64,000 nucleotides of DNA, taken from the NCBI RefSeq assembly GCF_024502345.1, contig NZ_JALDNN010000001.1; one strand, 5' to 3'. The translations under genes and the position numbers were made by a program. The stretch is from Escherichia coli (GTDB taxonomy: Bacteria; Pseudomonadota; Gammaproteobacteria; Enterobacterales; Enterobacteriaceae). Of this stretch, positions 5,531-53,627 are shown one piece after another (the stretch's first letter is position 1; every line of letters starts with the position of its first letter). Below the pieces are notes generated by a model, which did no database searches, had not been told where the DNA came from, and saw nothing but the letters and a program-made list of their open reading frames with translations.

Positions 5531-5605
5531 TTAAGGGCGGTGATCGACAATCTTATTGTCGATATTGAACCATTTTGAGGTCACACATATATGTAAGATA
5601 TTCAT
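5531..5605 (-). CDS. tnaC: tna operon leader peptide TnaC (24 aa)
   Basis: Minus-strand translation gives MNILHICVTSKWFNIDNKIVDHRP then stop; lies about 220 bp upstream of tnaA; below the ORF track length cut-off. Confidence 0.85.
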   Translation of the reverse strand: MNILHICVTSKWFNIDNKIVDHRP

Positions 5606-5847
5606 AATGCACTTATCCTCGAAAGACACGAGGCTACAGTATAATACTCAAGAATTTTGTCTATTCTAAAATTGTTTAAATGTGAATCGAATCACAATCG
5701 TTCGGGGAGCAATATTAAATGCTTTTTTTTAAGATTATAAATTACGTAAGAATTTTAATGTTTAAAAAAAGGGTTGAGGAATAACAGGAGTGCTAACAAT
5801 GAAGCGAAGCCGCATCTGACAGTCAGAATACGGCTTCGTAAGCGCGG

Positions 5848-10306: not shown

Positions 10307-11710
10307 GTGTCACTTTCGCTTTGGCAGCAGTGTCTTGCCCGATTGCAGGATGAGTTACCAGCCACAGAATTCAGTATGTGGATACGCCCATTGCAGGCGG
10401 AACTGAGCGATAACACGCTGGCCCTGTACGCGCCAAACCGTTTTGTCCTCGATTGGGTACGGGACAAGTACCTTAATAATATCAATGGACTGCTAACCAG
10501 TTTCTGCGGAGCGGATGCCCCACAGCTGCGTTTTGAAGTCGGCACCAAACCGGTGACGCAAACGCCACAAGCGGCAGTGACGAGCAACGTCGCGGCCCCT
10601 GCACAGGTGGCGCAAACGCAGCCGCAACGTGCTGCGCCTTCTACGCGCTCAGGTTGGGATAACGTCCCGGCCCCGGCAGAACCGACCTATCGTTCTAACG
10701 TAAACGTCAAACACACGTTTGATAACTTCGTTGAAGGTAAATCTAACCAACTGGCGCGCGCGGCGGCTCGCCAGGTGGCGGATAACCCTGGCGGTGCCTA
10801 TAACCCGTTGTTCCTTTATGGCGGCACGGGTCTGGGTAAAACTCACCTGCTGCATGCGGTGGGTAACGGCATTATGGCGCGCAAGCCGAATGCCAAAGTG
10901 GTTTATATGCACTCCGAGCGCTTTGTTCAGGACATGGTTAAAGCCCTGCAAAACAACGCGATCGAAGAGTTTAAACGCTACTACCGTTCCGTAGATGCAC
11001 TGCTGATCGACGATATTCAGTTTTTTGCTAATAAAGAACGATCTCAGGAAGAGTTTTTCCATACCTTCAACGCCCTGCTGGAAGGTAATCAACAGATCAT
11101 TCTCACCTCGGATCGCTATCCGAAAGAGATCAACGGCGTTGAGGATCGTTTGAAATCCCGCTTCGGTTGGGGACTGACTGTGGCGATCGAACCGCCAGAG
11201 CTGGAAACCCGTGTGGCGATCCTGATGAAAAAGGCCGACGAAAACGACATTCGTTTGCCGGGCGAAGTGGCGTTCTTTATCGCCAAGCGTCTACGATCTA
11301 ACGTACGTGAGCTGGAAGGGGCGCTGAACCGCGTCATTGCCAATGCCAACTTTACCGGACGGGCGATCACCATCGACTTCGTGCGTGAGGCGCTGCGCGA
11401 CTTGCTGGCATTGCAGGAAAAACTGGTCACCATCGACAATATTCAGAAGACGGTGGCGGAGTACTACAAGATCAAAGTCGCGGATCTCCTTTCCAAGCGT
11501 CGATCCCGCTCGGTGGCGCGTCCGCGCCAGATGGCGATGGCGCTGGCGAAAGAGCTGACTAACCACAGTCTGCCGGAGATTGGCGATGCGTTTGGTGGTC
11601 GTGACCACACGACGGTGCTTCATGCCTGCCGTAAGATCGAGCAGTTGCGTGAAGAGAGCCACGATATCAAAGAAGATTTTTCAAATTTAATCAGAACATT
11701 GTCATCGTAA
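10307..11710 (+). CDS. dnaA: chromosomal replication initiator DnaA
   Basis: Translation matches DnaA (AAA+ Walker [11 protein letters not shown]); start set at the GTG giving MSLSLWQQ (467 aa), 12 nt inside the track start. Confidence 0.9.
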
Positions 11711-12815: not shown

Positions 12816-16331
<3,516 letters not shown>

Positions 16332-16352
16332 TGGCGCTAACCATGCGAGCGT

Positions 16353-16450
16353 GCCTGATGCGCTACGCTTATCAGGCCTACGAAAATCTTGCAATGTATT
16401 GAATTTTCATGATTTTGTAGGCCGGATAAGGCGTTCACGCCGCATCCGGC
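16353..16450. repeat. REP/BIME element pair downstream of gyrB
   Basis: Two inverted REP-like units (gcctgatgcgctacgcttatcaggcctac and tgtaggccggataaggcgttcacgccgcatccggca). Confidence 0.6.
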
Positions 16451-16467
16451 AAGAAGCTATAAGAAAA

Positions 16468-16493
16468 GGGCGGAGATCATCTCCGCCCTTTTT
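16468..16493 (+). terminator. intrinsic terminator after gyrB
   Basis: Perfect hairpin gggcggagatcatctccgccc followed by a T-run. Confidence 0.5.
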
Positions 16494-16570
16494 ATTTCTG
16501 CAATCCGCAATTATCATCCCGCAAATCTATACTTTTTGGGTCAACACGTAACGCTTTACAGGTGATTATC

Positions 16571-16969
16571 ATGGGGCTTTTTGATGAAGTTGTCGGTGCC
16601 TTTCTGAAAGGCGATGCGGGGAAATATCAGGCTATTTTAAGTTGGGTTGAGGAGCAGGGCGGCATTCAGGTGCTGCTGGAAAAACTGCAAAGTGGCGGCT
16701 TAGGGGCCATTCTCTCAACCTGGCTGAGTAATCAACAGGGCAATCAATCGGTTAGTGGCGAGCAACTGGAATCGGCGCTCGGCACAAATGCGGTGTCCGA
16801 TCTCGGGCAAAAACTTGGCGTGGATACCAGTACAGCTTCCAGTTTACTGGCAGAGCAATTGCCGAAGATTATTGATGCGCTCTCACCGCAAGGTGAAGTG
16901 TCACCACAAGCCAATAACGATCTGCTTTCCGCAGGTATGGAACTGCTGAAAGGGAAACTCTTCCGCTAA
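16571..16969 (+). CDS. yidB: conserved protein YidB (DUF937-like)
   Basis: ATG at 16571 (MGLFDEVVGAF...) inside the GTG track ORF; K-12 synteny. Confidence 0.8.
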   Translation: MGLFDEVVGAFLKGDAGKYQAILSWVEEQGGIQVLLEKLQSGGLGAILSTWLSNQQGNQSVSGEQLESALGTNAVSDLGQKLGVDTSTASSLLAEQLPKIIDALSPQGEVSPQANNDLLSAGMELLKGKLFR

Positions 16970-17083
16970 GCAAATGGGGAGCATGCAACCCGCGTTGCAT
17001 CCCCCTTTTCCCTCGGGTGTTGTACTGATTTTTGAGCGGAATCGCGTTAGCATGGGTCAGGAACCAATCTACCTGGGGAACTC

Positions 17084-17896
17084 ATGGCTATCAAACTCAT
17101 TGCTATCGATATGGATGGCACCCTTCTGCTGCCCGATCACACCATTTCACCCGCCGTTAAAAATGCGATTGCCGCAGCTCGCGCCCGTGGCGTGAATGTC
17201 GTGCTAACGACGGGTCGCCCGTATGCAGGTGTGCACAACTACCTGAAAGAGCTGCATATGGAACAGCCGGGCGACTACTGCATTACTTATAACGGCGCGC
17301 TAGTACAGAAGGCCGCTGATGGTAGCACCGTGGCGCAAACTGCTCTCAGCTATGACGACTATCGTTTCCTGGAAAAACTCTCTCGCGAAGTCGGTTCTCA
17401 TTTCCACGCCCTGGACCGCACCACGCTGTACACCGCCAACCGTGATATCAGCTACTACACGGTGCATGAATCCTTCGTTGCCACCATTCCGCTGGTGTTC
17501 TGCGAAGCGGAGAAAATGGACCCCAATACCCAGTTCCTGAAAGTGATGATGATTGATGAACCCGCCATCCTCGACCAGGCTATCGCGCGTATTCCGCAGG
17601 AAGTGAAAGAGAAATATACCGTGCTGAAAAGTGCGCCGTACTTCCTCGAAATCCTCGATAAACGCGTTAACAAAGGTACGGGGGTGAAATCACTGGCCGA
17701 CGTGTTAGGTATTAAACCGGAAGAAATCATGGCGATTGGCGATCAGGAAAACGATATCGCAATGATTGAATATGCAGGCGTCGGTGTGGCGATGGATAAC
17801 GCTATTCCTTCGGTGAAAGAAGTGGCGAACTTTGTCACCAAATCTAACCTTGAAGATGGCGTGGCGTTTGCTATTGAGAAGTATGTGCTGAATTAA
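17084..17896 (+). CDS. yidA: HAD-family sugar phosphatase YidA
   Basis: 270-aa ORF with HAD motif IAIDMDGTLL. Confidence 0.9.
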   Translation: MAIKLIAIDMDGTLLLPDHTISPAVKNAIAAARARGVNVVLTTGRPYAGVHNYLKELHMEQPGDYCITYNGALVQKAADGSTVAQTALSYDDYRFLEKLSREVGSHFHALDRTTLYTANRDISYYTVHESFVATIPLVFCEAEKMDPNTQFLKVMMIDEPAILDQAIARIPQEVKEKYTVLKSAPYFLEILDKRVNKGTGVKSLADVLGIKPEEIMAIGDQENDIAMIEYAGVGVAMDNAIPSVKEVANFVTKSNLEDGVAFAIEKYVLN

Positions 17897-26510: not shown

Positions 26511-26612
26511 TACATCGTAGCCGATGAGGACGCGCCTGATGGGTGTTCTGGCTACCTGACCTGTCCATTGTGGAAGGTCTTACATTCTCGCTGATTTCAG
26601 GAGCTATTGATT

Positions 26613-27026
26613 ATGCGTAACTTTGATTTATCCCCGCTTTACCGTTCTGCTATTGGATTTGACCGTTTGTTTAACCACTTAGAAAACAACCAGAGCCAGA
26701 GTAATGGCGGCTACCCTCCGTATAACGTTGAACTGGTAGACGAAAACCATTACCGCATTGCTATCGCTGTGGCTGGTTTTGCTGAGAGCGAACTGGAAAT
26801 TACCGCCCAGGATAATCTGCTGGTGGTGAAAGGTGCTCACGCCGACGAACAAAAAGAGCGCACCTATCTGTACCAGGGCATCGCTGAACGCAACTTTGAA
26901 CGCAAATTCCAGTTAGCTGAGAACATTCATGTTCGTGGCGCTAACCTGGTAAATGGTTTGCTGTATATCGATCTCGAACGCGTGATTCCGGAAGCGAAAA
27001 AACCGCGCCGTATCGAAATCAACTAA
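26613..27026 (+). CDS. ibpA: small heat-shock protein IbpA
   Basis: ATG at 26613 ([16 protein letters not shown]...), alpha-crystallin domain. Confidence 0.9.
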
Positions 27027-40876: not shown

Positions 40877-40982
40877 ATTTTTGGACAAAACGCAAACTGT
40901 GATCGATACTCAACTATGTACTAAATACGTCAAAATTCGTGCCGAAATTGCGCGTTCTGCGCGGAACAGGTATACTTTCAGT

Positions 40983-41057
40983 GTTGACATAATACAGTGT
41001 GCTTTGCGGTTACCAGCCGCAGGCGGCTGACGAAACCTCGCTCCGGCGGGGTTTTTT
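40983..41057 (+). ncRNA. istR: antitoxin sRNA IstR-1
   Basis: 75-nt unit ending in a T-run terminator (41052-41057), preceded by a tatact -10 at 40971-40976; divergent from tisB. Confidence 0.65.
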
Positions 41058-52226: not shown

Positions 52227-52235
52227 AACCGCTTC

Positions 52236-52298
52236 GTCTTATCAGCCTACAGACCGCGCCTGACCTGTCGGGTGGATAAGACGTTCACGCCGCATCCG
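52236..52298. repeat. REP element between yicN and nepI
   Basis: ggataagacgttcacgccgcatccgg REP core with an inverted partner gtcttatcagcctac. Confidence 0.5.
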
Positions 52299-52436
52299 GT
52301 AATCTTTGCCCTGTTCCGTTTCGATCTTAACTCCAGCTCAAGCAACACCGTAAAAGTTGCAAAAACGTTAAATGCGTCACACATTTCAATGTTAAAGTGG
52401 TCGGCTTTTCCCCTGAAACATGCCACGGGTAACACC

Positions 52437-53627
52437 ATGAGTGAATTTATTGCCGAAAACCGCGACGCGGATGCCATCACCCGACCGAACTGGTCAGCCG
52501 TTTTCTCGGTGGCGTTTTGTGTCGCCTGTCTGATTATCGTTGAGTTTTTGCCCGTCAGTTTGTTGACGCCAATGGCCCAGGATTTAGGCATTTCGGAAGG
52601 GGTTGCCGGGCAATCGGTGACCGTGACCGCCTTTGTGGCAATGTTTGCCAGTTTGTTTATTACCCAGACAATTCAGGCTACTGACCGCCGCTACGTTGTT
52701 ATTTTGTTTGCCGTTTTGCTGACGCTCTCCTGCTTGCTGGTTTCCTTTGCTAACTCATTCAGTTTGCTTTTAATCGGTCGTGCCTGTCTGGGGCTGGCGC
52801 TGGGCGGGTTCTGGGCGATGTCGGCGTCGCTGACCATGCGTCTGGTACCACCGCGTACGGTGCCGAAGGCGCTGTCGGTGATCTTCGGCGCGGTTTCTAT
52901 TGCGCTGGTGATTGCCGCGCCGTTGGGCAGTTTTTTAGGCGAGCTTATCGGTTGGCGCAATGTCTTTAATGCGGCGGCGGTGATGGGCGTGCTGTGTATT
53001 TTCTGGATTATCAAATCATTGCCTTCACTGCCAGGCGAACCCTCGCATCAGAAACAAAATACTTTCCGCTTATTACAACGTCCGGGTGTGATGGCAGGGA
53101 TGATCGCCATCTTCATGTCTTTCGCCGGGCAGTTTGCTTTCTTCACGTATATTCGCCCGGTGTATATGAACCTGGCGGGATTCGGCGTGGATGGCTTAAC
53201 GCTGGTGCTGTTGAGTTTTGGTATCGCCAGCTTTATTGGTACGTCGCTTTCGTCGTTCATTCTTAAACGTTCGGTAAAACTGGCCTTAGCAGGCGCGCCG
53301 TTAATACTGGCTGTGAGTGCGTTGGTACTGACGTTGTGGGGAAGCGATAAAATCGTTGCTACCGGCGTGGCGATTATCTGGGGGCTAACTTTTGCATTGG
53401 TTCCCGTCGGCTGGTCAACGTGGATCACCCGCTCGCTGGCCGATCAGGCAGAAAAAGCCGGGTCTATTCAGGTGGCGGTTATTCAGCTTGCTAATACCTG
53501 TGGCGCGGCAATCGGCGGTTATGCGCTGGATAATATTGGTCTGACTTCGCCGTTGATGTTGTCCGGCACATTGATGTTGCTGACTGCATTGTTGGTTACT
53601 GCAAAGGTGAAAATGAAGAAATCCTGA
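52437..53627 (+). CDS. nepI: MFS purine ribonucleoside efflux pump NepI
   Basis: ATG at 52437 ([14 protein letters not shown]...), 12-TM MFS; the upstream 55 codons of the track ORF run through the REP element. Confidence 0.85.

Follow-up and report, generated by a model that had tools for sequence, protein, structure and literature searches.

A BIME-1 repeat in the gyrB 3′ untranslated region of Escherichia coli, upstream of the predicted gyrB terminator

That E. coli genes carry REP/BIME elements in their 3′ UTRs has been in the textbooks since the 1980s. In the older literature, BIME-1 is also named the RIB or RIP element. The REP-associated tyrosine transposase TnpA(REP) is believed to disperse and reshuffle the elements of this class. 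A REP is an imperfect palindrome of 30–40 nt that matches a consensus sequence and has a GTAG foot, and a BIME-1 consists of a z1 and a y unit, present in a single copy and joined by a long, well-conserved L linker in which an IHF site is frequent (PMC3333891). Table DS3 of Sutormin et al. lists 78 BIME-1 intervals, and as a class these are depleted in gyrase cleavage sites, with 3 observed and 9 expected (PMC6379681). One paper illustrates intergenic regions that contain REPs with the region between gyrB and yidB (PMC7967276).

We analyzed this region in a 64,000-nt stretch of the E. coli chromosome (hereafter the window), where the genes are arranged in the order dnaA-dnaN-recF-gyrB-yidB-yidA. 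The gyrB ORF ends at position 16331 with the stop codon TAA (16329–16331, plus strand). The next gene is yidB (16571–16969, plus strand; 132 amino acids, a YidB/DUF937 protein with a match to Pfam YidB). The original prediction had described the site as a convergence point of transcription, which it is not, as the plus strand carries both gyrB and yidB. Since the two genes are co-directional, the repeats lie inside the gyrB 3′ UTR and precede the terminator.

A 501-nt query around the element was found at 100% identity in many E. coli genomes, including that of the K-12 strain MC4100. When the 2-kb stretch 15536–17536 was compared with MG1655, 24 substitutions and no indels were detected. None of these differences lies within 16194–16854, so that the gyrB-yidB intergenic region is identical to that of K-12. 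MG1655 coordinates are obtained by subtracting the window coordinate from 3894036. The RefSeq tables for K-12 carry no repeat feature between gyrB and yidB, and likewise none at the BIME-1 between yaaX and yaaA; this annotation is therefore usable neither for nor against the presence of a repeat.

We conclude, with a probability of about 0.9, that window positions 16352–16451 (MG1655 3877585–3877684) are one BIME-1 in the gyrB 3′ UTR, 5′ of the terminator. Two inverted REP units had been predicted, and both were found. The pattern GTAGGCCKGATAAG-N(4-22)-GCATCMGGC had exactly two matches in the 64-kb window, at 16353–16381 on the minus strand and at 16417–16450 on the plus strand, that is, in inverted orientation. 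It had no match in 100 dinucleotide-preserving shuffles of the window.

The first unit is a z1-type REP of 30 nt (16352–16381), which reads GTAGGCCTGATAAGCGTAGCGCATCAGGCA on the minus strand without a mismatch to the consensus. Read directly on the plus strand it is TGCCTGATGCGCTACGCTTATCAGGCCTAC, an iREP on the sense strand of gyrB, with its foot CTAC at 16378–16381. A gap of 20 nt (16332–16351) separates it from the gyrB stop codon, its stem starting 20–21 nt past the last stop base. The L linker follows (16382–16416; 35 nt, partly palindromic). The second unit is a y-type REP of 35 nt on the plus strand (16417–16451), GTAGGCCGGATAAGGCGTTCACGCCGCATCCGGCA, which was recovered both as a consensus match and by an inverted-repeat search. 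Its foot GTAG is at 16417–16420, and its stem has the usual two-base mismatch. The element thus contains one z1 and one y unit in inverse orientation, in a single copy and not in tandem.

The sequence is also high in copy number, dispersed and extragenic, the copy examined here lying between the gyrB stop and the yidB start. With the 501-nt query, at least 40 matching pieces per record were found in 4241 records, and the median was at least 40 places per genome. As RNA, the z1 REP folds with −14.8 kcal/mol (z = −3.7), the y REP with −20.9 kcal/mol (z = −4.7) and the whole BIME with −42.6 kcal/mol. The z scores of the REPs, the BIME and the terminator lay between −3.7 and −6.2, and no shuffled sequence was as stable. 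The gyrB 3′ region as a whole also folds far better than its shuffles (z = −5.6).

The linker between the REPs is long and conserved, as expected for an L linker. It is identical to the linker of the yaaX-yaaA BIME-1 at 26 of 35 positions, and a 48-nt linker query found copies at a median of 9 places per E. coli genome. It contains an IHF-consensus-like site, ATTCAATACATTG, on the minus strand (16392–16404; MG1655 3877632–3877644), with one mismatch to WATCAANNNNTTR. The IHF consensus alone had 72 one-mismatch matches in the window against 54.5 expected, which is not significant. A match so near to chance on its own counts only in the context of an L linker. The motif is conserved in all Escherichia orthologs of the gyrB BIME. 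Every sequence-level feature in the definition of BIME-1 was thus found in the element after gyrB.

This BIME-1 is already known and catalogued. It is the entry 'BIMEs1 3763853-3763950' of 97 nt in Table DS3 (PMC6379681), which corresponds to window 16352–16449. The entry was mapped with an offset of +1122 between the reference used in PMC6379681 and the RefSeq sequence of W3110. We checked the offset with the gltS-recG BIME-1, where the start coordinate was exact, and with the sucB-sucC BIME-2.

A predicted intrinsic terminator of gyrB lies further downstream (16464–16497, plus strand). It is separated from the BIME by 12 bases and lies 132 nt 3′ of the gyrB stop codon. It consists of an A-tract (16464–16467), a stem arm GGGCGGAGA (16468–16476), the loop TCA (16477–16479), the second stem arm TCTCCGCCC (16480–16488) and a T-run (16489–16493) followed by ATTT. 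Counted with its flanks, the hairpin (16464–16492) has 14-nt arms that are 100% complementary, with TTTTTATTT directly 3′ of it. Its RNA fold has −23.3 kcal/mol on the plus strand (z = −6.2) and −21.7 kcal/mol on the minus strand. A GC-rich hairpin with a U-run immediately 3′ is what is expected of an intrinsic terminator, and the separate perfect hairpin terminator of the original prediction was thus borne out. The same holds for its overall description of a REP/BIME cluster plus terminator between the end of gyrB (16331) and the start of yidB (16571), which is an ordinary arrangement.

A consensus scan for promoters and terminators did not report the hairpin at 16464–16497; the sole site it gave was a chance-level one inside gyrB. 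The miss is likely due to the perfect palindrome, which leaves a 1-nt loop in the search. Folding was used instead. The Term-seq supplements that we searched have no entry for gyrB or yidB. In E. coli 2017.17.01CC, a 711-bp copy of IS200C (L002:598-1308) is inserted at the point corresponding to window 16497/16498, immediately 3′ of the terminator's TTTTTATT. The target of this insertion is the flank of the terminator, not the REPs. The exact junction is ambiguous because TTATT is also present at the right end of IS200C.

The same z1-L-y element, at the same distance from the gyrB stop, was found in E. albertii, E. whittamii, Escherichia sp. E1V33, Escherichia sp. MOD1-EC7003 and the divergent E. 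coli E69. Its presence at the same site in other Escherichia indicates that the BIME predates E. coli as a species. The terminator is also conserved across Escherichia, being kept in E. albertii and in an E. coli allele that lacks the BIME. In E. whittamii and Escherichia sp. MOD1-EC7003, a different terminator, of the CCCTTATATAAGGG type, lies 3′ of the same BIME-1. E. whittamii has about 1.2 kb of extra DNA there with a small, very hydrophobic reverse-strand ORF (MKKFIDILILIIFIVAVILG...), and MOD1-EC7003 has lost most of yidB. The CCCTTATATAAGGG-type terminator and a similar small ORF are shared by Salmonella diarizonae.

Among 5426 complete E. coli genomes, 4624 had the long allele with the BIME and 698 (12.9%) had a short allele without it. 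The short allele is invariant. In it, the whole interval from TAATGGC to the terminator stem is taken up by 37 nt of unrelated sequence, and the terminator and yidB are intact. For example, L003:433-473 in E. coli S1-KEN-05-A corresponds to window 16332–16467. Carriers include named O25b:H4-ST131 strains. The invariance of the allele points to a single event, and it probably arose by one replacement in one lineage. We considered whether the short allele might be a decayed REP and rejected this: 40-nt local alignments against the long allele scored 13 (shuffle mean 12.7) and 15 (shuffle mean 12.3). Similarity no better than that of shuffled sequences indicates replacement rather than decay. The BIME is thus dispensable, since 698 E. 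coli genomes lack it and keep the terminator.

Another layout follows gyrB in Salmonella enterica subsp. arizonae, several Citrobacter, Kosakonia, Superficieibacter and one Enterobacter: a y unit, a short linker and a z unit. Each of these BIMEs is followed by a hairpin terminator, and these loci have no yidB. Only a terminator follows gyrB in Klebsiella, Enterobacter cloacae, C. freundii, Atlantibacter and most other Enterobacterales. The different BIMEs after gyrB across genera show the gyrB 3′ UTR to be a repeatedly used landing place. Repeated landing at such sites is a normal habit of REPs.

Several ORFs run across the repeats, and the REPs had been proposed to explain the spurious ones. 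This explanation holds for a 66-amino-acid ORF on the plus strand (16351–16551), which reads through the BIME and the terminator, and for an N-terminal extension of nepI, but not for the antisense ORF at 15654–16394. The latter exists as predicted, on the minus strand, with 246 amino acids and a TTG start. However, 678 of its 741 nt are inside gyrB and only its first 63 nt are in the BIME region, so that the BIME contributes no more than the TTG start and 21 initial codons. Across the full length of gyrB, 3 stops occur in the codon-aligned antisense frame, compared with 31–32 in the other two antisense frames. The same frame is also open in three genera that lack a REP at this place (Enterobacter, Klebsiella and Cedecea), and it has 14 stops in Providencia. 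The antisense ORF stems from the codon usage of gyrB and not from the REPs.

At the second site for which REPs had been proposed (52236–52298), upstream of nepI, we found a decayed REP pair, a BIME remnant (52235–52298), although the strict REP consensus was not matched there. It consists of a truncated iREP, cgtcttatcagcctac, and a y-like REP with about 83% identity to the y REP of gyrB. The ORF at 52272–53627 is nepI with a false N-terminal extension of 55 codons, its GTG at 52272 lying inside the y-like unit.

A search of Rfam gave a match to ES036 (CssrF) on the minus strand at 16374–16416, with 44.8 bits against a gathering score of 37.6. Together with the two matches to the REP consensus, this agrees with the presence of the predicted repeats. 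Elsewhere, the model matches the E. albertii ortholog and the yaaX-yaaA linker, its matches beyond the window including L112:394-436 and L007:10959-11000; it has no match in the BIME-less E. coli allele. In effect, ES036 models the L linker of BIME-1 together with the opening bases of the z REP. Three other Rfam families scored above their gathering scores in the window: AsdA, an antisense RNA of the dnaA mRNA (10817–10897, minus strand), the ROSE_2 thermometer (26547–26619, plus strand) and istR (40928–41057, plus strand). All three are known elements of this chromosome region.

The ES036 score might be taken to mean that the minus strand carries a small antisense RNA gene, either an ES036/CssrF-like sRNA or an RNA antisense to the yidB 5′ UTR, of which the REPs and the hairpin are parts. 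In line with this, Fig. 5B and the supplement of PMC7967276 present, from re-analyzed TSS data, an RNA that starts between the co-directed gyrB and yidB genes on the opposite strand, antisense to the yidB 5′ UTR. The region concerned is window 16497–16570 (minus strand; MG1655 3877466–3877539). The hairpin also folds well on the minus strand, where UUUUCUU comes next. Nevertheless, ES036 matches the linkers of several BIME-1 copies and the linker occurs about 9 times per genome, so that the model detects the repeat and not a gene. The consensus scan found no sigma-70-like promoter on either strand within 16200–16700, nor one for yidB itself. For any antisense RNA that starts near yidB, the two-way hairpin (16464–16492) comes ahead of the REPs, and it would probably stop the reported minus-strand RNA before they are reached. 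The expression of the trimmed RNA is described in PMC7967276 as weak and limited to certain conditions, and the whole BIME is missing in 698 genomes. We therefore consider an sRNA gene at this site unlikely. ES036 matches should not be taken as sRNA genes without transcript evidence.

It might also be supposed that the BIME is a binding or cleavage site of gyrase, which would relieve supercoils downstream of the dnaA-gyrB cluster or feed back on gyrB expression. REP/BIME DNA binds gyrase better than random DNA, according to work cited in PMC6379681 and PMC6463007, and BIMEs of differing types lie directly after gyrB in several genera. Gyrase, however, prefers BIME-2, with y and z2 units in tandem, whereas the gyrB element is a single BIME-1, of a class depleted in cleavage sites. 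Its own entry has 0 gyrase cleavage sites in all four conditions (PMC6379681), by which the gyrase explanation is already largely refuted. Furthermore, no REP is present at this place in Klebsiella, Enterobacter cloacae, C. freundii and most other Enterobacterales, and the element is lost in ST131-type E. coli; a gyrase site is thus extremely unlikely. Equally hard to credit is a role of the stop-proximal REP in stalling terminating ribosomes and lowering GyrB through trans-translation. Such stalling has been described in E. coli where a REP lies no more than 15 nt from the stop codon (Liang et al. 2015, as summarized in PMC7967276), and the first REP after gyrB is fairly near the stop, but its stem begins 20–21 nt past it, beyond the 15-nt limit. 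Finally, the 66- or the 246-amino-acid ORF might encode a real small protein, both ORFs being present and the NCBI pipeline annotating, in some genomes, a partial pseudogene for a 'hypothetical protein' across the BIME. In E. coli ET979, such a pseudogene (L004:453-551; window 16352–16450, minus strand) lies exactly over the BIME, which shows that translations of REPs sit in protein databases. Neither ORF has a Pfam family. The 66-amino-acid ORF is made of repeat and terminator sequence and is mostly replaced in the short allele of the 698 genomes; codon bias in gyrB accounts for the longer one, which is not maintained in Providencia. We reject a protein-coding role for both ORFs, the chance of one being practically nil.

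The BIME-1 after gyrB is thus ordinary, non-coding, non-autonomous repeated DNA of the REP/BIME class, and its presence would be owing to the mobility of REPs rather than to a need of gyrB. By analogy with the class, gyrB transcripts would read through the BIME and stop at the hairpin and T-run (16464–16497), and the BIME would be carried on the gyrB mRNA within a 3′ UTR of about 165 nt. In this RNA the two REPs may fold as stable hairpins or as one long hairpin, and such REP hairpins might slow 3′-to-5′ exonucleases. In DNA, the linker may bind IHF and bend. Any function of the gyrB BIME in protecting the mRNA 3′ end or in IHF binding is thus a putative one, drawn from the behavior of related elements. 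None of these functions is essential, since a large clonal group of E. coli has swapped the BIME and kept the terminator. That ST131-type strains have lost it naturally speaks against anything more than a minor function.

The gyrB 3′ UTR was colonized independently by different BIMEs, z1-L-y in Escherichia and, in the opposite order, y-short linker-z in Salmonella arizonae, Citrobacter, Kosakonia and Superficieibacter, each placed after the stop codon and before a terminator. The pattern could be a sign that REP-based control of gyrB mRNA fate or of local supercoiling has been selected for, perhaps together with the reported antisense RNA and the two-way terminator, as opposed to neutral insertion in a permissive site. 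We regard such selection as very unlikely.

The class is textbook material and this copy is already listed, so that the finding has little biological weight. Its practical side is that the repeat breeds false ORFs and false sRNA calls, as seen in the ES036 match, the 'hypothetical protein' fragments of PGAP and the N-terminal extension of nepI. Long antisense ORFs in highly expressed genes, by comparison, come from codon bias and not from neighboring repeats. The natural BIME-less allele of ST131-type strains provides a ready comparison for the effect of a BIME-1 on the mRNA of an essential gene.

Among known systems, the terminator resembles canonical Rho-independent terminators in its 9-bp GC-rich stem, 3-nt loop and run of 5 T. 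It differs from them in its A-tract flank, which makes it symmetrical; with this A-tract/T-tract symmetry it is a potential two-way terminator, which could also stop transcription of the minus strand. The likeness to Rfam RF02751 (ES036, CssrF), above the gathering score, is that of the L linker and the start of the z1 REP. For Rfam RF02564 (naRNA4, CssrE), the y REP matches model positions 1–33. Its second hairpin, however, was aligned to the gyrB terminator and not to a REP, and membership in this family was rejected with 47.1 bits against a gathering score of 59.5.

The element shares alternating REPs and an intergenic position with BIME-2, which is made of tandem y and z2 units with short S linkers and is a target of gyrase in vivo. 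It differs from BIME-2 in that it lacks a z2 unit and an S linker and is not amplified in tandem. Without z2, tandem copies or a single cleavage site, it is neither a BIME-2 nor a strong gyrase site. The closest counterpart is BIME-1 as found, for example, between yaaX and yaaA (MG1655 5565–5669), with an inverted REP, an L linker with an IHF-type motif and a y REP. The yaaX-yaaA copy has a longer z2-like unit, whereas the gyrB copy has the short z1 of the BIME-1 definition. There is no essential difference between the two: each is a single extragenic element of about 100 nt at the 3′ end of a transcription unit.
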